Below are positions 34,333-62,823 of a stretch of 64,000 bases of DNA, one piece after another. Under the pieces are notes generated by a model. It was not told the origin of the DNA, did not search any database, and saw nothing but the letters and a program-made list of their open reading frames with translations. The first letter of the stretch is position 1, and each line of letters opens with the position of its first letter. The stretch is taken from IMG/VR virus record IMGVR_UViG_3300032116_000006, one strand, 5' to 3'. A program made the position numbers and the translations under genes. This DNA comes from a virus (lineage: Duplodnaviria; Heunggongvirae; Uroviricota; Caudoviricetes).

Positions 34333-34416
34333 CGGCCTCTGATGGAATAGGTAGACATAGTGGACTTAAAATCCCCTGTCCGTAAGGGCGTAAGAGTTCG
34401 AGTCTCTTGGGGCCGA
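34333..34416 (+). tRNA. tRNA-Leu (anticodon TAA), class II with long variable arm; 3' CCA not encoded
   Basis: Manual fold. Acceptor CGGCCTC/GGGGCCG (7 bp, one GU). D-stem ATG/CAT. Anticodon stem GTGGA/TCCCC (one mismatch) with loop CTTAAAA. Variable arm ~15 nt. T-arm AAGAG-TTCGAGT-CTCTT. Discriminator A. Confidence 0.65.
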
Positions 34417-35658: not shown

Positions 35659-35672
35659 TTCATAAATAGTGC
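35659..35672 (+). promoter_or_regulatory. late-promoter-like box TCATAAATAGTGCA upstream of the 2044-aa gene
   Basis: ATAAATAG again, as at 13909. About 25 nt upstream of the in-frame ATG at 35696. Confidence 0.3.
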
Positions 35673-38600
35673 ATAAGTTATTTTATGCACTAAGAATGGG
35701 GTTATCAAGACTTAGCCAACTGTTATCAAATATAACCGGAAGAACTTTATATGTAAACCCTGATTCAATAGATGCAACAGATTCTATTGAAAATCGTGGC
35801 AATTCTCCAACAAGACCTTTTAATGGTCTAAACCGTGCAATCGCAGAAGCTGTAAGATTCTCATATCAAACTGGACCAAATAATGATAGATTTGCTAGAT
35901 GCACCATTATTCTTTCCCCTGGTTATCATAGAGTAACTAATCGCCCTGGATGGATTCCAGATGGTTCAAATAATTTCATATTAAGAAACGGAACAACTTC
36001 AAGTAATTTCTCTCAATGGGATATTAATACTAATTTTGATTTTAATTCAAGCAATAATGCACTCTATAAATTAAATTCAATACATGGTGGAATTTTTCTA
36101 CCTCGTGGTGTTAGCATTATTGGTCAAGATTATAGAAAAACTATAATTGTTCCAGATTATATTCCAAATCCTGAAAATGATTTAATTGAAAGATGTGGAG
36201 TTTTTCTTCTTACTGGTCAGAACTTTATTAATGAAATAACCATTGAAGACCCTTCAGAGAGTGTTTATATTGATTACACAAATAATAGATATTCTCCAAA
36301 ATTTTCACAACATAAATTAACAAACTTTGAAATGGCAGATGGTGTAAATCCAGTTGCCATAAATGATGGAATTATTGAATATTCATCTACTAGAACCGAT
36401 CTTCAAATGTATTATGAGAAGATCGGTCTAGTTTTTGGTGCATCTTCAGGTAGAGAAATAAAACCAGATTATCCCTCATCTTCAGTTGATATTCAACCAA
36501 GAATTGATGAATATAGAATTGTTGGTTCAAGAGGAAAGGAAGTCTTATTAAGTGCAATACAAGCTGGAAATGGTATTACCGCCACAACCACAATTACTGC
36601 AACTCTCTCAGAGCCTATTAATGATTTAGATGTAAATACTCCAATTAGAGTTCAAGGTGTTCCAGTTTCTGGATATGACGGCCAATTTATAATTAAACAA
36701 ATCATTAGTCCAACTCAAGTAGTTTATGAAGTTTCAGTTGCTCCAATAGTTGCAAATCCATCTTTAGCTTCATCAACTGCAACTTTAAATATTTCTGTTG
36801 ATACTATCACATCTTCTTCGCCTTATCTTTTTAATCTAGCAAGTAAAACTGTTTGGGGGAGAAATGGCCTTGATGTTGATGGCTCTAAAATTTCTGGCTT
36901 TAAGTCAGTTGTAGTAGCTCAATTTACTGGAATTGGCCTACAAAAAGATCCCAAAGCATTTGTAAAATATAATACAGCTTCTGGAATTTTTGAAGATTTT
37001 TCTGCTTCAGGTAACGAAAATATTCAAACATCTAGTAGAGCATATTATAAACCCTCTTATGAAAACTTTCATATTAAGGCGAGTAATGATGGTTATGTTC
37101 AAGTAGTTTCAGTATTTGCTATCGGTTATGCCCATCAATTTTTATCAGAAAGTGGTGCAGATCAATCCATCAATGCTTCAAACTCTAATTTTGGTTCAAA
37201 AGCCTTAGTTTCTCGTGGATTTAGAAGTTCAGCATTTGTTCGTGATGATGTTGGTTATATTACACACATTATTCCACCGAAAGAAATTAAAACTACTGAA
37301 AATGCAATCACATACGATTCAATTGATGTTGGCATTACAACCTCAGTTGGACTAGCATCTCGCTTGTATTTTTATAATAAAAAATCTCTCGCTTCTCCCC
37401 CAGATTCTGTCATTGAAGGATTTAGAATTGGTGCAAACCCTTATGATTCATTAAGAGTTGTTATTAATTCTAGAGAATATTTTTCAACAATTGTGATGCC
37501 AAACTCGGCTAAAACGGGTGAAAAATCATATTCTGTTGGTAGAAGTAATGCTGGAATCAATAGTATCACTTCAGATACATTTACATTAACTGAAACTCAT
37601 ACATTTGTATCTGGGGAATCTGTAAGAGTTATTAGTGAAACTGGGCAACTTCCAAATAGTCTAAATTCTGGATTGTATTATGTCATTACTACTGGTAATC
37701 CAAATGAAATTAAACTTGCTCAAACCTTCACAGATGCCTTAACAGGAACAGAACTGTCTGTGAGCCCCTCTGGGGGGCCTCTGAGCATCGTTAGTCGGGT
37801 CTCAGACAAAGTGGCCGGAGAAATTGGACATCCTATTCAATTTGATCCTAATAATGGTTGGTATATCACTGTAGCAGTTTCTTTTGATAATCTTTTAAAT
37901 AGCATCTATTATAGTTTGAATACAGTTTCAAGAATAGCGACTCAAAGAACATATTTTTATCGTAGAAATGACAATCGTAGTTTGGGTGATACAATATATA
38001 AGCTTCGTTATGTTATTCCATCATCTGTTGATGCGGCTAGACCTCCTCTTGACGGCTATATTATTCAAGAGACTAATAGTACAATTGGCAAATCAAATAC
38101 TGAAGTTGAGTCACAATTTAATCCATCAACAACTACATTAAATTCAACATTCCAACTAAGAAACCAAAAGTTGATTGCCAATGCAAGTTGGTCAGCAAAT
38201 ACTGCAACTTTTGAATGTGAAGTTTCTCATAAACTCTCCATTGGTTCTGAAGTTGAAATAAAAAATGTAAAGAGCACTAATAATACAACTAGCCTAGATA
38301 ACTTAGGTTATAATGGAACATTCATTGTTACTGAGATTGTTAATGGAAAAATATTCAAAGTCATCCTTGAAACTAATCCTGGAACATTTACAAACAACAC
38401 ATCACAAAGAACCGTAGATTCACCTTATTTTATAAGAAAAAAATATAATAATATCTTCTACATTTATAAAGTTGAAGAGACTAAAAAACATATTCCCGGT
38501 GTTCAAGATGGAGTTTATTATCTTACTATACTGAATTCGTCAAATTATCCTGCAGTAGAACCCTTTAGGAATAAAGGATATTCTCAACCAATTCAAAATC

Positions 38601-41600
38601 TTTATCCTCAGAAGAATAGGGACAATCCAATTTCTGATCCAAAGGAAACGGCTTGTTATACTCTTCCTGATCCTCTTGGGCAGGTTGTTGTAAATAATCC
38701 ACAATACTCACTCACAAAAGAAACTTTACAAAGAGTTTTTCTTGAGAATGCTATTGGTATTGGTGTCACAAATATCATTTCAAATAGTGCTGGAACCGCT
38801 CACACAATTTATACCACATTAGATCATGGACTTGATCCAATTACTTCAGTTTCAATTACGTCTCCTGGAAATGGTTATGGAATTGGATCTGGGAGTAATG
38901 AAACTTACTATAATGCTAAATTAGTTAATATTTCTTCATCCGGTGAAAATGCAACAGCGAGTATTATTGTAAATTCAAGTGGATCTATCTCTAGTATTCG
39001 TATTATGGATGGTGGCAGCAATTATAATGTTGGAGATAGATTAAGTGTGGTTGGAATTGCAACGACAACTGGATATACAGTTGGAATTGTAAGTGTTGCA
39101 TCAATTTATAGTCATGTTGGAGAAACAATAAAGGTCAATAAAACTTTAGACCGATACAATACCAGTTATAGAATTACTGGAATTACAAGTAGTAGAGCGA
39201 TTCAAGTAAGTTCTGCCTCTTCAATAATCTCTCCATCTATATCTGGAATTGGAAGTGTTTCAATTGGACAATGTTATGCTGAATTGACCGGAAAAGCCAT
39301 TGCAATCTCATCAGTCGTCCATTCATCTGGAATTGCAACTATAACAACAATTGATTCACATGATTTATACGTTGACAATAAAATTCTTTTTGGTGGATTT
39401 ACTGAAAGTCCATTTAATAGAGAGTTTTTAGTGAATGGTGTTGTTGGTCTCAATACATTTACAGTAGCTACAGGTAGTACAAATATTTCTGTATCTTTCA
39501 CTCAAACTCCATATGCCTATAGACAAGGTGCAGCTTCTAATGGTGGCTCTTATACTAATGACAATGAAGGTTTAAGAACTAGAATGATTCCTTTATATTC
39601 TGGAATCACTACAACTTTATCTGGAAACATTAATTCCACTATAACTACAATTAATGTTTCAAATGCAGTTAATTGTGGTCTAAAAATTGGAGACTATTTA
39701 CAAATTGATGAAGAATTTGTAAGAATTTCAACAACAGTTGTTTCCAATACCCTTACTGTTTTTCGTGGGGTTTTGGGTTCAAGAAGTTCTTCACATTCTT
39801 CTGGAGCTATTGTTTATAAGATTGGCATTGTTCCCATTGAACTTAGACGCAACTCTTTACTTCGGGCAAGTGCACATACATTTGAATATAATGGCTTTGG
39901 ATCTGGAAATTATTCATCAGCTCTACCAGATAGACAAGATAGAACCTTATCCCAACAGGAAGAATTATTAGCACAATCAACCAAAGAAAATGGCGGCATC
40001 GTTGTTTTTTCTGGGATGAATGCAAATGGTAGTTTTTATGTTGGAAATAAAAAAGTTAATTCTGCAACTGGAACCGAAGAAATTTTTGAGACTCCAATAC
40101 CTACTATTACTGGCGAAGATGTCAGTACATTAAGTGGTTACAATAATGTAAATACATTTGAAGCGACTATTAATCGCTCTCTGTTTGTTGAAGGTGGGGC
40201 TAACAAAAATCTTATTTCACAATTTGATGGACCCGTTGTTTTTAATAATAAAATAGTTTCAAATTCTGAAAGAGGATTTGAAGCATCTTCAATGCTATTA
40301 TATGGTCAAGGATTAACACCAAGAAATTATACAATTGGTTCATCTGAACCGAAATTATCTGGAAATCCTGGTGATGTTCAATATAATTCAGAGCCAATAA
40401 GTGGTGGATTTTTAGGTTGGGTCTATACCACAAATAATCGTTGGGAAAAATTTGGAAAAATCGGAAGCAGTGGATTATCTGTTGATAATAGTGTCGGAGT
40501 TTCTAGTAATGGCTCTTTTGTTGGACTTTCAACTCTTATTGACTTTAAGACAAGTGGAATTGTTCTGACTTCTTCATATGATTCAGTAAGCGGGATTACA
40601 ACATTAAATTTTTCTGGTGCTTCACCTTTAGGTAATAGTATTGGTATTTCAACTGGTTCTAATAATTTTGTTGGAATGGCAACTCAAATTAATTTTGTCG
40701 GTAGTCCAAATATTGATATAATTGGAACTGGTGGAACGGGAATTAATACAATAAGAGTCGGAATTTCATCTACTTCTTCAATATTAGCTTCAGGTTTCAT
40801 TAAAAGAGGTGCAACCGGAACCAATTTCTTAAAAGCTGATGGGTCAGATGCAACCATTACTTACAATGAGGTTACCAATGCCTTAGGTTATGTTCCTGCA
40901 AATTCAGGTTCAGTCTCTGGTGGTTCTGAAACTGGTAATTCAATTATTTTAGATCAATTATCATCTTTTAATGGAATTACTTCTACATTTGATTTAAAAC
41001 TTAATGGGAATCTTTTTGTTCCCCCTGGTGGACCTGCTAATTTAATTGTATCTCTTGGCGGAATTATTCAAAGGCCAGGAACTGATTATTTTATTCCTCA
41101 AAATGCTGGAATTAATACAAGCAAGATACAATTTACTGATGTACCTTTATCTGGTCTTTCACACTTTATTGTTAGTCTTGGTGGTCAAGGATCCCTATTA
41201 AGTAATGGATCTTGGAACTCTAAAGGAGATTTAGTTGTTGGTCTTACTGATAATAATGCAGGTATTTTAAGTGTTGGTGCTAATGGTCAGGTTCTTACCG
41301 TTGATAGTAATTCTCCAGTTGGAGTAGCTTGGACTGATGGCCCAAAAATAATTTTAGCTGGATCTCAAAATACAAGCAGTGGAAATTCAATTAGTTATAC
41401 AGACATTCCAAGCTGGGCTAAAAAAATTACAATATCATTTGAAGGGGTTGGTATTAATGGTTCTGGAGATATTCTAATTCAATTAGGAACTAATAGTATA
41501 ATAACTTCTGGATATGAATCAACAAGTTCAAAAGTTAGTACGGCTGTTGCAACAATAAATTCAACCAATGGATTCATTGTTGAGAGTGATGGTTTCACTG

Positions 41601-41803
41601 CCCTAATAGGTGGCCATTTTACTTTAACTACAAATGGAGGAAATAAGTGGATTAGTAGTCATACTATGAGAGGTGGCCTTTCTGCTTCTTATTTCGGAGC
41701 TGGAAATGTTACATTATCTTCATTATTACAACAAATTCATATTAGTATTACAAACTCAAATAGTTTTACTTCTGGTTCTATTAATGTCATTTACGAGGGC
41801 TAA
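35669..41803 (+). CDS. giant fibre/structural protein, 2044 aa (likely tail fibre or decoration fibre with many beta-rich repeats)
   Basis: Single uninterrupted ORF. Ser/Thr/Gly/Asn/Ile-rich with recurring GxxGYxxG.G..S-type segments typical of phage fibre proteins. The track start is GTG at 35669. The first in-frame ATG is 35696 (MGLSRLSQ). Confidence 0.7.
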   Translation: MHKLFYALRMGLSRLSQLLSNITGRTLYVNPDSIDATDSIENRGNSPTRPFNGLNRAIAEAVRFSYQTGPNNDRFARCTIILSPGYHRVTNRPGWIPDGSNNFILRNGTTSSNFSQWDINTNFDFNSSNNALYKLNSIHGGIFLPRGVSIIGQDYRKTIIVPDYIPNPENDLIERCGVFLLTGQNFINEITIEDPSESVYIDYTNNRYSPKFSQHKLTNFEMADGVNPVAINDGIIEYSSTRTDLQMYYEKIGLVFGASSGREIKPDYPSSSVDIQPRIDEYRIVGSRGKEVLLSAIQAGNGITATTTITATLSEPINDLDVNTPIRVQGVPVSGYDGQFIIKQIISPTQVVYEVSVAPIVANPSLASSTATLNISVDTITSSSPYLFNLASKTVWGRNGLDVDGSKISGFKSVVVAQFTGIGLQKDPKAFVKYNTASGIFEDFSASGNENIQTSSRAYYKPSYENFHIKASNDGYVQVVSVFAIGYAHQFLSESGADQSINASNSNFGSKALVSRGFRSSAFVRDDVGYITHIIPPKEIKTTENAITYDSIDVGITTSVGLASRLYFYNKKSLASPPDSVIEGFRIGANPYDSLRVVINSREYFSTIVMPNSAKTGEKSYSVGRSNAGINSITSDTFTLTETHTFVSGESVRVISETGQLPNSLNSGLYYVITTGNPNEIKLAQTFTDALTGTELSVSPSGGPLSIVSRVSDKVAGEIGHPIQFDPNNGWYITVAVSFDNLLNSIYYSLNTVSRIATQRTYFYRRNDNRSLGDTIYKLRYVIPSSVDAARPPLDGYIIQETNSTIGKSNTEVESQFNPSTTTLNSTFQLRNQKLIANASWSANTATFECEVSHKLSIGSEVEIKNVKSTNNTTSLDNLGYNGTFIVTEIVNGKIFKVILETNPGTFTNNTSQRTVDSPYFIRKKYNNIFYIYKVEETKKHIPGVQDGVYYLTILNSSNYPAVEPFRNKGYSQPIQNLYPQKNRDNPISDPKETACYTLPDPLGQVVVNNPQYSLTKETLQRVFLENAIGIGVTNIISNSAGTAHTIYTTLDHGLDPITSVSITSPGNGYGIGSGSNETYYNAKLVNISSSGENATASIIVNSSGSISSIRIMDGGSNYNVGDRLSVVGIATTTGYTVGIVSVASIYSHVGETIKVNKTLDRYNTSYRITGITSSRAIQVSSASSIISPSISGIGSVSIGQCYAELTGKAIAISSVVHSSGIATITTIDSHDLYVDNKILFGGFTESPFNREFLVNGVVGLNTFTVATGSTNISVSFTQTPYAYRQGAASNGGSYTNDNEGLRTRMIPLYSGITTTLSGNINSTITTINVSNAVNCGLKIGDYLQIDEEFVRISTTVVSNTLTVFRGVLGSRSSSHSSGAIVYKIGIVPIELRRNSLLRASAHTFEYNGFGSGNYSSALPDRQDRTLSQQEELLAQSTKENGGIVVFSGMNANGSFYVGNKKVNSATGTEEIFETPIPTITGEDVSTLSGYNNVNTFEATINRSLFVEGGANKNLISQFDGPVVFNNKIVSNSERGFEASSMLLYGQGLTPRNYTIGSSEPKLSGNPGDVQYNSEPISGGFLGWVYTTNNRWEKFGKIGSSGLSVDNSVGVSSNGSFVGLSTLIDFKTSGIVLTSSYDSVSGITTLNFSGASPLGNSIGISTGSNNFVGMATQINFVGSPNIDIIGTGGTGINTIRVGISSTSSILASGFIKRGATGTNFLKADGSDATITYNEVTNALGYVPANSGSVSGGSETGNSIILDQLSSFNGITSTFDLKLNGNLFVPPGGPANLIVSLGGIIQRPGTDYFIPQNAGINTSKIQFTDVPLSGLSHFIVSLGGQGSLLSNGSWNSKGDLVVGLTDNNAGILSVGANGQVLTVDSNSPVGVAWTDGPKIILAGSQNTSSGNSISYTDIPSWAKKITISFEGVGINGSGDILIQLGTNSIITSGYESTSSKVSTAVATINSTNGFIVESDGFTALIGGHFTLTTNGGNKWISSHTMRGGLSASYFGAGNVTLSSLLQQIHISITNSNSFTSGSINVIYEG

Positions 41804-42834: not shown

Positions 42835-43575
42835 ATGATTCATTATCTCTTACAATCAGGAAACATTCTATCCACTGAAAAATCTGCATGTCTTAGAACA
42901 GAACATAAAATTACATGGACTGCTCATTCAAATCTTTTTAATACTATCAATCATCTTCTATTAACAGATAAACTTTCAGATATTATTCCTGTAGGATCTG
43001 TAGAATTTTGTAGAACTTATACTGAAATTGTAGGACTTGAGTTACCTGATGATTTTTCATATGGTTCAGTAGATATTTCTTTAATAGAACCATATTTAAA
43101 AAGAAAAATCAATAAAACAACTTTTGCGTTAGCAAAAGAATGTAGTTTCATTAAGCCGGTCTACACTAAACTTTTTACTGGAGACATTAAGAATCGCATT
43201 AATGATTCATCGCTTTCAGAATTTGAAGTATGGGAATCTGAACCTGTAGAATTTACAGCAGAATTTAGATTCTATATCTATAGGGATAAAGTTATTGGTT
43301 ATTCTCGTTATGATGATTTAGACTGTGATTGTAAAGAACTAGACCACCATTTAATTGAAAAAATTATTAAAGTGCAAAACTCTTTCCCAATTGCTTATTC
43401 AATTGATATTGGTTGGCGAAATGATATTAATGAGTGGAGTCTTATTGAATTAAATGATGCATGGGCCTTGGGTTTTTATAATAATAGTGATACCTCTTCA
43501 AAACCCCCAAAAAGCAGTGATTATGCTCTAATGATTGCAGAAAGGTGGAGAGAAATTGTAAATGGACAGATTTGA
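42835..43575 (+). CDS. hypothetical protein, 246 aa
   Basis: ORF. Confidence 0.55.
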   Translation: MIHYLLQSGNILSTEKSACLRTEHKITWTAHSNLFNTINHLLLTDKLSDIIPVGSVEFCRTYTEIVGLELPDDFSYGSVDISLIEPYLKRKINKTTFALAKECSFIKPVYTKLFTGDIKNRINDSSLSEFEVWESEPVEFTAEFRFYIYRDKVIGYSRYDDLDCDCKELDHHLIEKIIKVQNSFPIAYSIDIGWRNDINEWSLIELNDAWALGFYNNSDTSSKPPKSSDYALMIAERWREIVNGQI

Positions 43576-48074: not shown

Positions 48075-48440
48075 ATGAAAATCTCTACAACACATAAAAG
48101 ATTTGCAGATCATTTAGATGACCAAATCGCTCTAGAATACCCTGCACGTTTTCTAGGACCCAATTGGAAGAATGTATTGAACTTCTGGATCTATTTGGAT
48201 ACTTTGAGTGGTGAAGAATTTAGGTTAATTTTTGATCGTTATTGGGCTTTAGATGAAGATGCTAGAGTTTCTGCTATAAATAATGCTCATAAAGCGGCTG
48301 AAGCGACTATAGATATTCATTATACATATACAACTCGTGGTGCCGCCCTTACACTTGCACCTGCTTATGCATCCCTTGAACTCATTGGTTCTCATAAGCT
48401 AGAGTCTCTTAATTTTCTTCCTTTGTTTCTAAACCAGTGA
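48075..48440 (+). CDS. MKISTTHK-family paralog 9 (array 3)
   Basis: Conserved termini. 'DARVSAINNAHKAAEATI' subtype. Starts 2 nt after the upstream stop. Confidence 0.7.
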   Translation: MKISTTHKRFADHLDDQIALEYPARFLGPNWKNVLNFWIYLDTLSGEEFRLIFDRYWALDEDARVSAINNAHKAAEATIDIHYTYTTRGAALTLAPAYASLELIGSHKLESLNFLPLFLNQ

Positions 48441-48808
48441 AAATATCTTCTTCTCATCAAAAATTTGCAGATCGGTTAAATAACCAAACTGCTCTAGAAT
48501 ACCCTGAACGTTTTCTGGGACCTAATTGGAAGGATGTATTGAATTTCTGGATTTATTTGGATACTTTGAGTCGTGAAGAGCTTGATAAAGTCTATGAGCA
48601 TCATCGTGGTTTGAAAGACATACATATATCAAGGCGTCTTGCTTGGTGTGCTGCTAAGGATACTATAGGTTATGATTATACAAATGCAGCTGCATTTGCA
48701 TATTATGTTAATTGTTATAATGCCGCTGGATGTCATGCAACCAGTGAACTCATTGGTTCTCATAAGCTTGAGACCTTGACGTTTTTTCCTTTGTTCATAA
48801 ATTTTTAA
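48437..48808 (+). CDS. MKISTTHK-family paralog 10
   Basis: MKISSSHQKFADRL...ELIGSHKLETLTFFPLFINF. Confidence 0.7.
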   Translation: MKISSSHQKFADRLNNQTALEYPERFLGPNWKDVLNFWIYLDTLSREELDKVYEHHRGLKDIHISRRLAWCAAKDTIGYDYTNAAAFAYYVNCYNAAGCHATSELIGSHKLETLTFFPLFINF

Positions 48809-48816
48809 ACTTATTC

Positions 48817-49965
48817 ATGAATTTACTTAATGGCATTGTAGATATATTCCCATCAATAGAACCACAAAATTTTTTGGAAACTCCAAAAAGAATTAAACTT
48901 GGATTTGATCCAACAACAGATTTTTTACATTTAGGTCATGCTGTTCTTTTAAGAAAATTAAGGCAATTTCAAAATGAAAATCATACTCCTGTAATAATTA
49001 TAGGTGACTTTACTGCAAGAATTGGAGATCCAACAGGAAAATCAAAAACTAGAAAACAATTAACCAAAGAAGAAGTAGAATTCAATACCAATGAATTTTT
49101 GAATACTCTTTCAAATTTTATTGACCCCGAAAAATCTGAAATTATTTTTAATTCTAAACATTTAGAACAATTATCTCTATCTACAATTATACAATTACAA
49201 TCATTGGTAACAGTAAATCAACTCCTAGCGAAAAGGGATTTTCATCAAAGATTTGAATTACAAAGCCCTATCAGTTTGCATGAATTTATGTATCCACTAC
49301 TTCAAGGATATGATAGTCATGTAATATCATCTGAAATAGAACTTGGAGGAATTGATCAAAAATTTAACATCTCAATGGGTAGAGATGTTCAAAGACATTT
49401 CAAAAATAAAAATGAACAAATTGGAATGTTAATGCCAATTTTATGTGGTACTGATGGTGCCAATAAAATGTCTAAAAGTTTGAATAATGCAATAAAAATT
49501 GATGAACATCCTTTAATAATGTTTTCTCAATTGGAAAAAATTCCAGATAATTTAGTAGATGAATATATTCTTCTACTCACCGACTGTAATTTGGGAGATT
49601 TTTCTCCAGATCCTAGAGAAAGGCAAAAACAAATGGCCTTTGAGATTGTTTCAGAATTTTATGGTTCTGAAGTTGCTCTAAAGTCTATGAATGAATCTCA
49701 ACAGATCGTTTTGTCTAATTCAAATATATCAGATGTCCCAGAGATAGTTGTTTCACATTTGCAGTTTCCATTACCTCTTGCAACTTTATTGAGAGAAACT
49801 AAATTATCAGATAGTTCATCTGCAGCAAGAAGATCAATTCGTTCAGGTTGTATTAAATTAGATGGGATTAAAATTACAGATGAAAATATTATGGTTGATA
49901 TAAATGATATTGAAAATAAAATTATAAGAATGTCAAAGAACTCTTTTCATCGTTTTGTCATGTGA
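48817..49965 (+). CDS. tyrS: tyrosyl-tRNA synthetase (class I aaRS), 382 aa
   Basis: HIGH motif as HLGH (DFLHLGHAVLL), TyrRS-typical IGDPTGKS, and KMSKS motif (KMSKSLNNAI). C-terminal S4-like region. Confidence 0.8.
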   Translation: MNLLNGIVDIFPSIEPQNFLETPKRIKLGFDPTTDFLHLGHAVLLRKLRQFQNENHTPVIIIGDFTARIGDPTGKSKTRKQLTKEEVEFNTNEFLNTLSNFIDPEKSEIIFNSKHLEQLSLSTIIQLQSLVTVNQLLAKRDFHQRFELQSPISLHEFMYPLLQGYDSHVISSEIELGGIDQKFNISMGRDVQRHFKNKNEQIGMLMPILCGTDGANKMSKSLNNAIKIDEHPLIMFSQLEKIPDNLVDEYILLLTDCNLGDFSPDPRERQKQMAFEIVSEFYGSEVALKSMNESQQIVLSNSNISDVPEIVVSHLQFPLPLATLLRETKLSDSSSAARRSIRSGCIKLDGIKITDENIMVDINDIENKIIRMSKNSFHRFVM

Positions 49966-51264: not shown

Positions 51265-51465
51265 AAGCACCCAAAGAGTACAAACAATGGATCAATAGAC
51301 TGAGAGCTTTATATTCCTCTTAGATAATCCACATATGGAAAGGAAATTAAACAACAATAAAAAGCATAGAAAAATAAAAATTGAGACAATTTAACAACTG
51401 TCCACCAAATCTCAAAATTCACAAAAAATCCCTTAGTATTAACCTACAATCAACCAAAATCAACC

Positions 51466-52002
51466 ATGAGTGAACTTCCTGAATTTATTGCATTTCCTAA
51501 AATTCCACGTCTTCAAAAAGATTGTGTAGTTACTGAAAAAATTGATGGCACTAATGGTGTTATCTACATCACTCTTGATGGTGATATGTTTATTGGGAGC
51601 CGAAATCGTTGGATTACTGCAGACTCAGACAATGCTGGGTTTCATCGTTGGGTGATGGAAAATAAAGCTGAATTAGAGAAACTTGGACCAGGTAGACATC
51701 ATGGTGAATGGTGGGGAAGTGGAATTGGTCGGGGATATAATCTCCCCAAAGGAGAAAAGCGTTTTTCTCTTTTCAATGTTCATGTTTGGAATGAAGAGAA
51801 TATTCCTAGCTGTTGTCATGTAGTTCCAACTCTTTACACTGGAGAATTCAATACTAATGAAATTGAAAATGCAATGTTAAGTCTCCAAGAAATGGGTTCC
51901 CATGCTGCTCCCGGTTATATGAATCCTGAAGGAGTTATGGTCTATCATGCTGCTGCTTGTATGTACTTCAAAGCTCCATTTGACAAAAACCACAAAGGTT
52001 AA
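51466..52002 (+). CDS. minimal ATP-dependent RNA/DNA ligase-like nucleotidyltransferase (Rnl-like), 178 aa
   Basis: Ligase motif I KxDG as TEKIDGTN. Candidate motif IV EGVMVYH. Lys-rich C-terminus (motif V-like). The small size resembles phage RNA_ligase-family proteins. Confidence 0.5.
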   Translation: MSELPEFIAFPKIPRLQKDCVVTEKIDGTNGVIYITLDGDMFIGSRNRWITADSDNAGFHRWVMENKAELEKLGPGRHHGEWWGSGIGRGYNLPKGEKRFSLFNVHVWNEENIPSCCHVVPTLYTGEFNTNEIENAMLSLQEMGSHAAPGYMNPEGVMVYHAAACMYFKAPFDKNHKG

Positions 52003-52011
52003 AACAAATCA

Positions 52012-52776
52012 ATGAAATCTGAACTATTTCAATTTGCTGAAGTTGGTGGAGCTGTTCGGGATTCTTTTCTCGGAGTTCCTTCAAAAGATATAGACTTTGT
52101 TGCAATCCCAAATAATACAAATGATTGGAATTATGCAGATGAGGCTTTTACTAATTTAGTACAGGAATTATTTCATCTAGGATTCAAAGGATTTGATAGT
52201 AATAGTGGGAACTTCATTCTAAAGCCTGAATTTTTCACTGCTAGAGTGCAAGTCCCTAAAGAGAACCCTCTTCATCAACGTACAGTTGTGGCAGATTTTG
52301 TTCTATCACGTAAAGATGGACCAAGTTCTGATGGACGTAGACCCGATTATGTTCTACCTGGAACTTTGCTTGATGATCTTAAGCGTAGAGATTTTACCAT
52401 TAATGCAATGGCAGTCTTAGACGGCGAATTGGTAGATTATTTCGGCGGTCAAAAAGATCTAGAGGATCGCTTAATTCGCTTTGTTGGAGATCCACACGAA
52501 AGAATTGCAGAAGATGGTTTAAGAGTTATGAGAGCTTTAAGATTTGTAATCACTAAAGATTTTATGCTCCATCCAGAGACCTATGATGCTATTAATTGCA
52601 GTTTAGGTGCACAGATGTTGACAAAAGTTTCTATTGAACGTATTAGAGAAGAGCTGGAGAAAATGTTCACCTCAAATACATTGAAAACGATTTCTATTCT
52701 CAGTGGCCTTAAAGCTGATCTTCAAGAAGCAATTTTTAGAGATGGTTTGCGTCTGATGCCGTCTTTGAAGCATTAG
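52012..52776 (+). CDS. cca: tRNA nucleotidyltransferase (class II CCA/poly(A)-polymerase family, minimal head-neck form), 254 aa
   Basis: GGAVRDSFLG...KDIDFV (metal-binding DxD) and the class II signature RRDFTINAMA. Confidence 0.75.
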   Translation: MKSELFQFAEVGGAVRDSFLGVPSKDIDFVAIPNNTNDWNYADEAFTNLVQELFHLGFKGFDSNSGNFILKPEFFTARVQVPKENPLHQRTVVADFVLSRKDGPSSDGRRPDYVLPGTLLDDLKRRDFTINAMAVLDGELVDYFGGQKDLEDRLIRFVGDPHERIAEDGLRVMRALRFVITKDFMLHPETYDAINCSLGAQMLTKVSIERIREELEKMFTSNTLKTISILSGLKADLQEAIFRDGLRLMPSLKH

Positions 52777-52875
52777 ATTGTGACAGATTAAAATGTGTCA
52801 CCGCAAGAACCCAAACCGAGTTCCCTTGCCATATGATAATAGAGCATTAAACAAACCCTCATGCCTTTCTAGTCA

Positions 52876-53040
52876 ATGCTTGTAAGAATTATTGGAACTG
52901 CAATTGGAGTGTCTCTCTTACTTTTCATTCTTCTCTTGAGGGGACTTCCGGTTCTGTTTCTTCTTAAAATGATTCCTCTAGGAATTCTACTTTTTGTTGC
53001 TATTGCATTCATTTATGCTGGCGTAGCAAAAGATAGCTGA
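52876..53040 (+). CDS. small two-TM membrane protein (~54 aa), possible NfeD-like partner of the downstream SPFH protein
   Basis: Read manually: MLVRIIGTAIGVSLLLFILLLRGLPVLFLLKMIPLGILLFVAIAFIYAGVAKDS. Confidence 0.3.
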   Translation: MLVRIIGTAIGVSLLLFILLLRGLPVLFLLKMIPLGILLFVAIAFIYAGVAKDS

Positions 53041-53095
53041 TCAAAATCTCTGATCTTACTGTTTAACTTACCCATTCACTTCACCCTTTTTAACT

Positions 53096-53908
53096 ATGTC
53101 TCTCGTAAAAGTTGGTCTAGGTCTTGGTGCTGGCGTCCTGGTTCTTGCACTTATTTCCGGGCAATGGACAACAATCAATACAGGTGAAAACGGACTTTAC
53201 ACTGGATTTGATGGCCAGGTAAAGAATGAAGTTCTCACCCCCGGTATTAAATATGATGGTTTTGGTTCAATTAAAGTCTTCAATACTCGTAAGATTACGG
53301 TGACGGCAAATGACCTTCGCCCCAAGACTAAAGATAACACCATCATGAAGGAGATGGATGTGACCGTAACCTACAGTATCAATCCCACCTCTCTCTATGA
53401 TTTCTATACTGGTTATGATATGACCAATCACTCTATCAGCGAAAATGGACAAATTCAACTCATGTCCAGTTACATTGCTCGTCTGATTACTTCTGCTGTC
53501 AATCAATCTGTGGACGAATTCCCCGCTTTGGTTGTAAACAGCAGCCTTGGACAGGTTCAAGATACGATTAAGATTAATCTAAGCGAATCTCTAAAGAAAA
53601 ATGGTCTTGAGGGAAAGATTACCATTGATTCAATCATTGTTGGTAAAGCTGATCTTCCTGATACTCTTGTTGAATCTGTGAACCGTGTGGTTGCGGCCCA
53701 ATCTGCAAATAAAGAGCAACAAGTGAAGACTGAAACTGCCCAATTGAAAGCTGAAGAGAACAAGGCTCTTGCATCTACTGTGACGGCACAATCTCTTGAG
53801 TATCAACGTCTTGAAGTTCTTCGTGAAGCGATGAGGAATGGTAGCATTCAAAAAATTCTGATTAATGGTGCCAATGTTCTTTCACTTTCTGATAATGTTT
53901 TTAAGTGA
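53096..53908 (+). CDS. SPFH/band-7 (prohibitin/HflKC-like) domain protein, 270 aa
   Basis: N-terminal TM anchor. SPFH-like core (TKDNTIMKEMDVTVTYSINP). C-terminal coiled-coil (QVKTETAQLKAEENKALA...QRLEVLREAM). Confidence 0.65.
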   Translation: MSLVKVGLGLGAGVLVLALISGQWTTINTGENGLYTGFDGQVKNEVLTPGIKYDGFGSIKVFNTRKITVTANDLRPKTKDNTIMKEMDVTVTYSINPTSLYDFYTGYDMTNHSISENGQIQLMSSYIARLITSAVNQSVDEFPALVVNSSLGQVQDTIKINLSESLKKNGLEGKITIDSIIVGKADLPDTLVESVNRVVAAQSANKEQQVKTETAQLKAEENKALASTVTAQSLEYQRLEVLREAMRNGSIQKILINGANVLSLSDNVFK

Positions 53909-55060: not shown

Positions 55061-55156
55061 ATGGAGAAAAAATTCAATCGGAAAAAGAATGAAACTAAAG
55101 GACACTTTATGGAGAAAAAATTCAATCGGAAAAAGAATGAAACTAAAGGACACTTT
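55061..55156 (+). repeat. 48-bp perfect tandem duplication (2 units: ATGGAGAAAAAATTCAATCGGAAAAAGAATGAAACTAAAGGACACTTT)
   Basis: Read directly: 55061..55108 is identical to 55109..55156. The unit ends with the dispersed GGACACTTT motif. Confidence 0.85.
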
Positions 55157-55172
55157 AATGACTGACACATTG
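55148..55172 (+). promoter_or_regulatory. dispersed upstream motif GGACACTTTAATGACTGACACATTG (copy a)
   Basis: Related copies at 55842..55867, 57401..57424, 59487..59510 and 63309..63329. All lie on the + strand 70-190 nt upstream of + strand start codons. Confidence 0.4.
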
Positions 55173-59669: not shown

Positions 59670-60908
59670 ATGGAACTCCGACTGCAACAAAAAAAGGCCA
59701 TTGAAGTTCTTTCTCAGGCAAATAGAGGAATTATTGCAATGGCTCCAGGCTCAGGGAAAACTCTCATTCAAATTCATGATTCAAAAAGAATTTTTGAACA
59801 ATCTGAAGAACCACAGACTGTTGTAGTTGTAGCGCCAAGAATACTTCTTGCTTCGCAGTTATCTTTTGATTATGGAAAGCACATTAATTGTGCTAAGTAT
59901 CTCCATGTTCACTCAAAAATTGGAAAGGTAAATCATTATCATACAACAGATAAAGAAAATATCAGACAATGGTGTGAAATTCATAAGGAGCACCATAAAC
60001 TAATTTTTACCACCTATCATTCACTCAAAAAGATTTATAAATCAGGGATTACGGTAAATACATATATGTTTGATGAATCACATAATTCAACATCTGCTGG
60101 GTTTCATGAATATGTGAAAAAGGTAAGTGATAATAATCAAAGATGCTTCCATTTTAGTGGTACACCTAGATTTAGCAGGGCACCTAAAAATCCGAAAAAG
60201 ACAAAAAAACCTGGAATGAATGATCCAGTTTATGGTGAAATTATAGTAAAAGCCACAGCAGCAGAAATGATTAAGCATGGTTATATCTTAAAGCCAAGGG
60301 TCATTTCTCATTATCTTGAATGGGTTGAAGAGAGAACTGCACAACATGATGCAACAGATATCTTAAATATCATTAAGACATACAATCTTTCTAAACTTCT
60401 TATAAACGTAAGAAAAACATCAAATATGATGGAAATGCTTTCAGAGACAAATTTTCAAGAGTCTTTGAGAGAACTTGGCTATGATTTATTACATATTACT
60501 TCAAATTATGGTCCAGTGTATAATGGTAAAAAAATTAAAAGGGACAGATTTTTCCAACTCTTAGATAAGCTTGGTGAATCTATGGATAAAAAATATGTCA
60601 TTTTAAATTATTCAATTTTAGGTGAAGGAATAAACATTAAATCATTAGATGCTGTACTCTTACTAAGGCAACTAAATCTAATAAAACTTATTCAAACTAT
60701 AGGGCGAGCAATCAGACTCTCTTCTGAGGATCAAAGGGCTATTGATAATGGAAGCTTAAAGGCATGTGATTATATGAATTATCTTAAACCTGAAGGTTTA
60801 GTAATTATACCTGTTTATGATAAAAGACTTTTAGAGCAATCTAAAAGTATTACAACCACTGTTGAAGATGTCTATGAAAAGGGAGAACTCCCAATTATGC
60901 AAGTTTAA
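59670..60908 (+). CDS. superfamily-2 helicase (DExH, res-subunit-like), 412 aa
   Basis: Walker A/motif I MAPGSGKT. Motif II DESH (MFDESHNS). Motif III-like SGTP. Motif VI-like QTIGRAIR. Confidence 0.7.
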   Translation: MELRLQQKKAIEVLSQANRGIIAMAPGSGKTLIQIHDSKRIFEQSEEPQTVVVVAPRILLASQLSFDYGKHINCAKYLHVHSKIGKVNHYHTTDKENIRQWCEIHKEHHKLIFTTYHSLKKIYKSGITVNTYMFDESHNSTSAGFHEYVKKVSDNNQRCFHFSGTPRFSRAPKNPKKTKKPGMNDPVYGEIIVKATAAEMIKHGYILKPRVISHYLEWVEERTAQHDATDILNIIKTYNLSKLLINVRKTSNMMEMLSETNFQESLRELGYDLLHITSNYGPVYNGKKIKRDRFFQLLDKLGESMDKKYVILNYSILGEGINIKSLDAVLLLRQLNLIKLIQTIGRAIRLSSEDQRAIDNGSLKACDYMNYLKPEGLVIIPVYDKRLLEQSKSITTTVEDVYEKGELPIMQV

Positions 60909-61345: not shown

Positions 61346-61858
61346 ATGAACATTTTTGCAACCTCTTTTTGTCCAGAACAGTCTGCAATTGTTCTCCCAG
61401 ATTTACATATTAAAAAGATGCCAATTGAATGCTGTCAAATGCTTGCTTATGTTGCATCTCCTTGGATTCACAATTACGGAACTATTCCTAAAAAAGATGG
61501 AACACCATACATGACAAAAAGAAACAGCCCTCGCCTTAAACATCCATGTACGCTATGGGTAGCAGAATCTATTCATAATGCTCATTGGCTAATTTATCAT
61601 GGGTTTATGTTGTGCGAGGAATATTTTAGACGTTATGAAAAACAAATTGCATGTTATGGATCTCTTTTAAATGCTCTAGAAATATTTCCTGATGGTGACT
61701 TTAATAAGATTACACCATTTATTAGAGCTATGCCTGATCATTTGAAGTTTGATAAGACAATTGACACATTTACAGCCTATAAAAAATATCTTGCATCAAA
61801 ATCATGGGCAGCAAACAATTATAAAAAACTTCCATCCCGCAAACCAAATTGGATTTAA
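61346..61858 (+). CDS. Cys/His-rich hypothetical protein, 170 aa
   Basis: ORF. Possible later start at the internal Met (MPIECCQMLAYVA). Confidence 0.45.
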   Translation: MNIFATSFCPEQSAIVLPDLHIKKMPIECCQMLAYVASPWIHNYGTIPKKDGTPYMTKRNSPRLKHPCTLWVAESIHNAHWLIYHGFMLCEEYFRRYEKQIACYGSLLNALEIFPDGDFNKITPFIRAMPDHLKFDKTIDTFTAYKKYLASKSWAANNYKKLPSRKPNWI

Positions 61859-61864
61859 TTATAA

Positions 61865-62239
61865 ATGAAAATCTCAACTTCTCTTAAATATTTTCAAGAC
61901 AACTATCACTATGATATTCCTAAACTTGGTTCCAATTATAAGAATATTTTAAACTTTTGGATTTTTATTGATACATTAAATATCAACCAATGGAATAAAA
62001 TTGAAAAAGCTTTTTATCTAATTGAACAAGGTTACAATCTAACAGAAATTAAACACTTTGCTGCGGATTTAAACGGCTATGCATATGAAATTCAACTTTC
62101 CACATGGGGATGTCCATATAAAAAATATAATTTATCACTAAGATCTCCAATATTTGCAGCTTATGAACTAATTGCAATGGATAAAATTCTTGATGAAGGA
62201 AAAACTCTACAGATTTTACCACTATTTTTAGATTTATGA
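61865..62239 (+). CDS. MKISTTHK-family paralog 14 (most divergent)
   Basis: Retains MKIST, NILNFWIFIDTLN, YELIAMDKIL..LQILPLFLDL. The rest has diverged. Confidence 0.55.
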   Translation: MKISTSLKYFQDNYHYDIPKLGSNYKNILNFWIFIDTLNINQWNKIEKAFYLIEQGYNLTEIKHFAADLNGYAYEIQLSTWGCPYKKYNLSLRSPIFAAYELIAMDKILDEGKTLQILPLFLDL

Positions 62240-62823
62240 ACCCCATAAGAAAAACCAACTATCTTTCTATTGATTTAGAACTTAATACTGATGGAACACA
62301 AACATATGAAATTTGCGAAATTGGAGTAGCTCTAGGAAATATTGATGAAATATTTTTAACAGATTCAAGGGTTATTAAAATTAAGCAGCCTCTATTTGAA
62401 AAAACTACAGAAATTACCAAAATTACACAAGAAGAGATTGATTCTGGGATCTCATTAAATGAAGCTGCTCAATGGCTTTCTGAAATAATTGATACTCATA
62501 AGCCTTTTGTAAATCCAGTACAATGGGGTGTTAGTGATTCTTTTGAATTGTTAGCTGAATTTAAACAGAACAATATTAATTTTCCATATTTTGGAAGACG
62601 AATTATTGATGTAAAACACATCTTTCTTTTTATTGAAGCTGCATATGGTAGAAGTCTTTCTGGTGGATTAAGAAGTGCAATGGGTAAACATAAGCTCAAA
62701 TTTTTCGGTACTCCACATAGAGCAGAGTGTGATGCTCACAATACTTTAAGATTATTTTTTCACCTTTTGAAACGACAAAGAAGTCTTGAAGAAATTATAG
62801 TTAAATCTAAATCCATTTTTTAA
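62236..62823 (+). CDS. DEDDh 3'-5' exonuclease (DnaQ-like), 195 aa
   Basis: Exo I LSIDLELN (DxE). Exo II-like region. Exo III HRAECDAHNTLRLF (H-x4-D). Confidence 0.65.
   Translation: MNPIRKTNYLSIDLELNTDGTQTYEICEIGVALGNIDEIFLTDSRVIKIKQPLFEKTTEITKITQEEIDSGISLNEAAQWLSEIIDTHKPFVNPVQWGVSDSFELLAEFKQNNINFPYFGRRIIDVKHIFLFIEAAYGRSLSGGLRSAMGKHKLKFFGTPHRAECDAHNTLRLFFHLLKRQRSLEEIIVKSKSIF

Follow-up and report, generated by a model that had tools for sequence, protein, structure and literature searches.

The window analysed here, a stretch of 64,000 nucleotides (nt) from a virus of the class Caudoviricetes (IMG/VR record IMGVR_UViG_3300032116_000006), carries on its forward strand a gene for a 178-amino-acid (aa) Rnl2-like adenylyltransferase (51466-52002), here called the small ligase, followed by a gene for a 254-aa class II tRNA nucleotidyltransferase (NTase; 52012-52776) for which CCA addition is predicted. 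Both proteins are far smaller than their cellular homologues, as a preliminary description of this DNA had remarked, and each is reduced to a catalytic core. The pair may best be regarded as two co-transcribed members of an RNA-maintenance toolkit that is dispersed in the phage, and not as a fixed two-gene module, a reading to which a probability of about 50% is assigned. Both genes fall into existing and routinely annotated PHROG families, and the interest of the locus lies in the minimal architectures of the two proteins rather than in their adjacency.

The two open reading frames (ORFs) and their motifs are located where the preliminary description had placed them, with EKIDGTN at residues 24-30 of the small ligase and GGAVRD, DID and RRDFTINAMA at residues 12-17, 26-28 and 125-134 of the NTase. 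The close spacing of the genes was also recognized there, but the figure of 10 nt was not correct, as the spacer measures 9 nt (52003-52011, + strand) and follows a TAA stop codon at 52000-52002. Because the spacer is so short the two genes are likely co-transcribed, and together with the gaps flanking the pair (201 nt upstream, 51265-51465, and 319 nt downstream, 52777-53095) this suggests a single transcription unit. Promoter and terminator scans between 49.9 and 54.1 kb gave site counts at chance level, which are uninformative on operon structure, and RNA folding in the 3' intergenic region was not significant (z = -1.5).

The window was taken from a metagenomic contig of 249 kb; genes identical to its own are present on 16 or more contigs. 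The G+C content of approximately 32-36%, the T4-like baseplate and tail-tube domains encoded, and a best cultured-phage match of the NTase to the 244-kb Synechococcus phages B3 and B23 (61% identity) point to a large T4-like freshwater myovirus as the source, to which no near match was found among cultured phages.

The small ligase

The small ligase matches the Pfam family RNA_ligase (PF09414; E=2.7e-11) and PHROG 548, 'RNA ligase' (E=4.8e-27). Its sequence contains motif I (E24-K25-I-D-G-T-N30, the K25 codon being 51538-51540 on the + strand), motif Ia (G44-S-R-N-R48), motif III (H78-x-G-E81-W-W-G), motif IIIa (F103-N104), motif IV (E155-G156) and motif V (K169). In an alignment of 28 sequences, K25, D27, G28, N30, S45, E81, F103-N104, E155-G156 and K169 are invariant, R46 and R48 are at least 90% conserved, and the pair C116-C117 is conserved throughout. 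Motif I aligns to K35 of T4 Rnl2, which was also the sole match when the Protein Data Bank (PDB) was searched with the family profile, the alignment then covering motifs I to IIIa. The AlphaFold model is confident (predicted local distance difference test, pLDDT, 85.6) and has a nucleotidyltransferase fold, of which 152 residues align to the 233-residue T4 Rnl2 chain 1s68, in the nucleotidyltransferase core only. This core fills the whole 178 aa, and neither of the accessory domains looked for, the Rnl2 C-terminal domain and the Rnl5 N-terminal OB domain, is present. Judged from motifs and model, the protein is thus the nucleotidyltransferase core of the Rnl2 lineage, and the earlier identification of a KxDG nucleotidyltransferase of ligase type is borne out by Pfam, PHROG, motifs and fold alike.

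The short length is a property of the family. More than 7,990 homologues were retrieved, nearly all of 175-215 aa among the 120 matches listed, and an exhaustive profile search returned 1,076 clusters at 50% identity with E<=1e-30. Among the 150 best representatives of the family most have 157-300 aa, and the few longer ones owe their length to inteins or added domains. Inteins are found in three representatives (P0280, P0305 and P0353), with a LAGLIDADG endonuclease in P0280 and P0353, while fusions to other domains are rare (P0284, at L203:7001-7891, P0292 and P0278). A GatB/YqeY tRNA-binding tail is fused to the ligase in two samples, inside a nucleotide-metabolism module (RNR/ThyA/DHFR); one homologue, from a single 1-kb contig, carries a Tad3 anti-Thoeris (Thoeris-inhibitor) domain; and one seven-member cluster carries a C-terminal array of KFKVGDRV-type repeats. 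These fusions are suggestive only.

The short tRNA nucleotidyltransferase

The head domain of the NTase matches Pfam PolyA_pol (PF01743; E=4.3e-19), the following part matches PolyA_pol_RNAbd (PF12627; E=7e-6), and the whole belongs to PHROG 24229, 'tRNA nucleotidyltransferase' (E=3.9e-43). Motif A (G12-G-A-V-R-D17 with D26 and D28, 52087-52095) and motif B (R125-R-D127, 52384-52392) are invariant in 29 homologues, as are E167, D168 and R171 of the nucleotide-selecting motif D (E167-D-x-x-R171, 52510-52524), and motifs B and D align to the CCA-adding enzymes in the PDB. A flexible loop lies between motifs A and B (residues 101-114, 52312-52353; all on the + strand). This stretch, at approximately residues 100-114, aligns without gaps to the loop of the Planococcus halocryophilus enzyme and is the sole low-pLDDT part of a model that is otherwise confident (pLDDT 86.9). 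The agreement of motifs, Pfam, PHROG and fold sustains the class II tRNA nucleotidyltransferase identity proposed earlier.

The four-domain architecture of head, neck, body and tail is not found in the NTase, in which body and tail are missing, and the protein aligns only through residue ~254 of CCA-adding enzymes of 395-420 aa. The NCBIfam CCA models match it below their full-length cut-offs (PRK13299: 135 bits versus 290). With a profile of the NTase, CCA-adding enzymes score higher than A-adding enzymes and poly(A) polymerases, and from motifs and model the protein is most likely a head-plus-neck class II enzyme with full CCA specificity. This small form is also widespread, as more than 7,297 homologues were found, of which the best 120 are all 241-271 aa long, and a relative occurs in 465 cultured phage records.

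A proposed dispersed RNA-maintenance toolkit

If the pair serves RNA maintenance, the NTase would add or restore C-C-A on tRNA 3' ends, using as substrates the CCA-less tRNA-Leu of the phage as well as host tRNAs trimmed by exonucleases or by tail-clipping defences. One such defence is the Cas12a3 anti-phage system, which cleaves tRNA CCA tails (PMC12851939). The enzyme retains all catalytic and nucleotide-selecting motifs and the loop required for the switch from C to A, and would work without the body and tail that in cellular enzymes anchor the tRNA elbow. The small ligase would be adenylylated by ATP at Lys25, the AMP would then move to a 5'-phosphate, and attack by a 3'-OH would seal the break. 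Lacking a dedicated end-healing partner, it may act directly on 5'-PO4/3'-OH breaks, of the type left by metal-dependent nucleases.

The single tRNA of the window is a tRNA-Leu(UAA) at 34333-34416 (+), predicted by ARAGORN. Its discriminator A is followed by TTTAAA, and the statement in the preliminary description that its CCA is not templated is therefore accurate. At the gathering threshold, an Rfam search of the whole window gave no match, the search filters having missed even this tRNA; when its region was scanned alone the tRNA model scored 41.7 bits against a gathering score of 29. The tRNA is a possible substrate of the NTase, but as a host CCA-adding enzyme could mature it too, its lack of CCA is a non-discriminating argument.

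Further parts of the toolkit would be a Pnk-like kinase, a metallophosphoesterase and an OB-fold RNA ligase, all encoded approximately 13-16 kb downstream of the pair. They form a canonical heal-and-seal cluster (L012:15062-18579), some 0.7-4.2 kb past the 3' end of the window, in which a larger ligase of 514 aa (PHA02142-OB and RNA_ligase domains, PHROG 968) is followed by two small ORFs, a 152-aa AAA_33 Pnk-like kinase, a 229-aa metallophosphoesterase and then a primase-like ORF of 180 aa. No end-healing kinase or phosphatase adjoins the pair itself. The analogy that had been drawn with Pnk and Rnl1 of T4 is consequently not supported for the small ligase, as the healing enzymes which it requires stand next to a different ligase, that of 514 aa.

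Linkage of the two genes across genomes

What weighs against a joint role of the two proteins in RNA maintenance is the way in which their genes are distributed, together with some properties of the small ligase and the state of the literature. Linkage was assessed in the best 80 IMG/VR loci with the small ligase, collected by an alignment-based contig search, in 80 ligase loci of bacterial genomes and in 21 loci with the gene for the NTase (the CCA gene). A CCA homologue is found within 8-10 kb of the ligase in 1/80 viral and 0/80 bacterial-genome loci, and a ligase within 10 kb of the CCA gene in 2/21 loci, while in Caulobacter phage CcrBL9 the two genes are located ~70 kb apart. Neither are the neighbours of the ligase conserved: their largest cluster, a DNA methylase, is present at 6 of 68 loci. 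The neighbours to which a function can be assigned belong mainly to replication and recombination. A recurrent fusion to the GatB/YqeY tail, which as a Rosetta stone would have pointed to tRNA binding, was considered and rejected, as it is confined to a single lineage. The small ligase has a single invariant Lys in motif V, and according to work from the Shuman laboratory T4 Rnl2 and DraRnl reportedly need their accessory domains for full nick sealing; for this reason an autonomous ligase activity of the 178-aa protein is not assured. Finally, literature searches gave no biochemical report on the short single-domain ligase family and no published assay or characterization of short phage CCA-adding enzymes.

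The loci in which both genes do occur show a consistent order. The one viral ligase locus with a CCA gene in that range (L017) has it 654 bp from the ligase with one ORF between, and the two CCA loci with a ligase are L105, at a distance of 2.4 kb, and L106, which is the same contig as L017. Two further large contigs carry both genes on the same strand, with the ligase upstream, at distances of 13.5 and 15.2 kb, so that four other related large-phage contigs share the ligase-upstream order on one strand (654 bp to 15.2 kb). In the nearest relatives (L099 and L100; 95-98% identity) the 9-nt spacing and the flanking synteny are kept, the order being tyrosyl-tRNA synthetase (TyrRS), two to three small ORFs, ligase, CCA gene and Band_7 gene. 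Within the clade the genes thus share a variable region in a fixed order, and their direct adjacency is specific to the lineage of the window. The preliminary description had proposed a candidate tRNA repair module. As a dedicated two-gene unit this is only weakly supported: the enzyme identities, the likely co-transcription and the investment of the phage in tRNA and RNA functions speak for it, whereas the rarity of the pairing elsewhere speaks against it.

With the kinase of this contig as query, tblastn finds a homologue in 1/80 viral and 0/80 bacterial-genome ligase loci. In L017/L106 a homologous Pnk-like kinase is encoded 2.3 kb upstream of the small ligase, and in L107 and L108 it immediately precedes the CCA gene. 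Such loose associations speak for an RNA-end theme of the region, though not for an obligate partnership of ligase and CCA-adding enzyme.

Two other candidates were rejected. The 'nucleotidyltransferase' gp509 of CcrBL9, a neighbour of the ligase, appeared to offer a second pairing of ligase and NTase, but it lacks a Pfam match, is similar neither to the CCA protein nor to any PDB entry and shows no visible Pol-beta motif, and the real CCA gene of that phage is the distant one mentioned above. Nor was there, among the 68 loci with clustered neighbours, a conserved trans-acting partner which might replace the accessory domain of the ligase.

Alternative explanations

The placement of the small ligase in other phages suggests that it may instead be a nick sealer in replication and recombination, acting on DNA or on RNA-DNA junctions, in which case its adjacency to the CCA gene would be incidental and the CCA-adding enzyme would work alone. 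In the T7-like Rhizobium phage RHEph21, for which no DNA ligase is annotated, it is flanked by a primase-helicase and DNA polymerase I, in mycobacteriophage Zaka it lies between ThyX/helix-turn-helix genes and DNA Pol I, in a Vibrio N4-like phage beside a polymerase-like protein, ThyX and RNR, and in CcrBL9 it adjoins DNA Pol I and a Dda helicase. The Pfam families of 150 viral neighbours include N6_N4 methylase (5), SSB (4), DnaB (3), RNase_T, AAA_30, DNA_pol_A, Pol III beta and YqaJ, RecD-like helicases being also present, and those of 143 prophage neighbours include DNA methylases, RecT, DNA_pol_A, DnaB_C, YqaJ, Toprim, PDDEXK and D5_N. The variable spacing between ligase and CCA gene within the clade, from 9 nt to 15 kb, fits this explanation, as do the inteins of several ligase members, since inteins are typical of replication and nucleotide-metabolism proteins. 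However, the small ligase is not merely the DNA ligase of its phages, because a true ATP-dependent DNA ligase of 297 aa (DNA_ligase_A_M and OB_2 domains; L101:7936-8829) is encoded 1.4 kb downstream of it in L101. The window itself lacks a homologue of this DNA ligase; coexistence is also seen at L138/L139, and a DNA-ligase-like ORF lies near the small ligase in Labilithrix. Location is in any case weak evidence, as early regions of phages mix genes for replication, nucleotide metabolism and counter-defence. In the lineage of the window, moreover, no replication genes surround the small ligase, and both sequence and fold relate it to RNA ligases. A role in replication is possible but not favoured. 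A bolder variant of the repair hypothesis, which would make the 178-aa protein a self-sufficient single-domain RNA ligase and the pair a healing-free repair system with the head-and-neck CCA-adding enzyme, reversing damage by metal-dependent tRNA nucleases, appears unlikely. If it were true, no smaller ATP-dependent polynucleotide ligase would be known, the small ligase would in effect define a further Rnl class, and the pair would reverse 5'-PO4/3'-OH breaks in anticodon or acceptor as well as CCA tails clipped in the manner of Cas12a3.

That the 178-aa protein does not ligate at all, and is a stand-alone adenylyltransferase that retains the AMP itself or passes it to a protein, a small molecule or App-RNA, perhaps in counter-defence, seems quite improbable. 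The idea draws on the absence of the accessory domains of the characterized RNA ligase families, on the single Lys of motif V, and on T4 Rnl2(1-249), which alone is said to self-adenylylate and to seal only pre-adenylylated nicks. The Tad3 fusion would fit as well, but it rests on one short contig, and more than 1000 clusters at 50% identity show strict conservation of all nucleotidyltransferase motifs, IIIa and IV among them; a single-domain precedent also exists in T4 Rnl1, the nucleotidyltransferase domain of which reportedly joins RNA ends by itself. As regards the NTase, the loss of the tRNA-elbow-binding body and tail, the scores below the NCBIfam equivalog cut-offs and the additional matches to the pcnB and A-adding models could indicate a poly(A) polymerase, a CC-only or A-only enzyme, or a general RNA tailer. 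This is nevertheless improbable, as genuine CCA-adding enzymes give the best sequence and fold scores, the EDxxR motif is invariant, and the flexible loop is of full length. CC-adding enzymes are said to have arisen by deletion of this loop (work of Neuenfeldt et al., 2008), and an A-adding enzyme reportedly regains CCA addition when its C-terminal region is removed (work of Tretbar et al., 2011). The dispersed RNA-maintenance toolkit, with a CCA-adding NTase and an RNA-directed small ligase, is thus the reading retained here.

Comparison with known systems and implications

Compared to T4 Rnl2 (334 aa) and to the Rnl5 enzymes DraRnl and NgrRnl (~340 aa), the small ligase lacks the C-terminal domain of the former and the N-terminal OB domain of the latter; its motif IIIa has Asn where Rnl2 has Asp120, its motif V is reduced to the one Lys, and its ligase activity is a prediction. 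For a 203-aa 'deviant Rnl2' of Diplonema a model but no assay is available (PMC4599027). The NTase shares head, neck, motifs A, B and D and a loop of equal length with the CCA-adding enzymes of Geobacillus stearothermophilus (1miv) and P. halocryophilus (6ibp), but is without their body and tail, approximately 150 C-terminal residues. Features of its own are an idiosyncratic insert (residues 30-95) and, near the C-terminus, the conserved motif AIFRDGLRLMPxLK, and the family is phage-borne.

Like T4 with its Pnkp and Rnl1, and like the bacterial Pnkp cassettes, this phage has a ligase, a P-loop kinase and a metallophosphoesterase; unlike in T4, the healing enzymes are 13-16 kb away from the small ligase and beside the larger one, and the small ligase, which is of the Rnl2 and not the Rnl1 lineage, is without a tRNA-specific domain. 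RNA ligases, the RlaP Pol-beta nucleotide adders and CCA-adding enzymes have been proposed, on the basis of comparative genomics, to act in RNA repair of jumbo phages (PMC7824862), and RlaP has been characterized (PMC12776372). The pairs of RNA ligase and RlaP follow the same logic, with a 3'-nucleotide-adding enzyme of Pol-beta fold beside an RNA ligase, but RlaP belongs to PF10127 whereas the NTase of the window is of the CCA type (PF01743/PF12627), and its linkage to the ligase is not conserved across genomes.

If active as predicted, the two proteins would show how small two classic RNA enzymes can be, one a ligase without a substrate-binding domain and the other a CCA-adding enzyme without the body and tail that measure the tRNA. 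Phages and prophages carry both families in abundance, but published biochemistry was found for neither, and knowledge of their substrates would tell routine mending of tRNA ends by phages, in answer to defences that clip tails or cut anticodons, from a wrong 'RNA ligase' label on hundreds of genomes. Enzymes this small could also serve as reagents. Being lineage-specific, the adjacency of the two genes in the window adds little.

Other features of the window

A complete TyrRS of 382 aa is encoded 1.5 kb upstream of the pair (48817-49965, +), as the preliminary description had it, with Pfam matches to tRNA-synt_1b, the TyrRS C-terminal domain (SYY_C-terminal) and S4. Its position is kept in the closest relative (L099), and it gives the region a translation-related context. 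Directly upstream of it are two tandem paralogous ORFs (48075-48440 and 48437-48808; 121 and 123 aa, 52% identical, overlapping by 4 nt), the first of which had no match in a Pfam scan.

Directly downstream of the pair lies the gene for a Band_7/SPFH protein (53096-53908, +; Pfam Band_7, E=6.6e-17), the function of which is probably outside RNA metabolism. It is the most constant neighbour of the CCA gene, more so than the ligase, as homologues of approximately 75-87% identity are found within a few kb of it in most related phage contigs (L097, L103, L105, L106, L109-L111 and L115).

Farther from the pair, a 2044-aa ORF (35669-41803) has no Pfam match on record and is followed, about 1 kb downstream, by an R2K_3/R2K_2 ATP-grasp protein (42835-43575). 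Between small ORFs, a 48-bp unit is perfectly duplicated in tandem (2.0 copies, 55061-55157). Downstream of the pair, a DEAD/ResIII helicase (59670-60908), a Pyr_excise protein similar to T4 endonuclease V (61346-61858) and a DEDD exonuclease of the RNase_T family (62236-62823) are encoded in a row.

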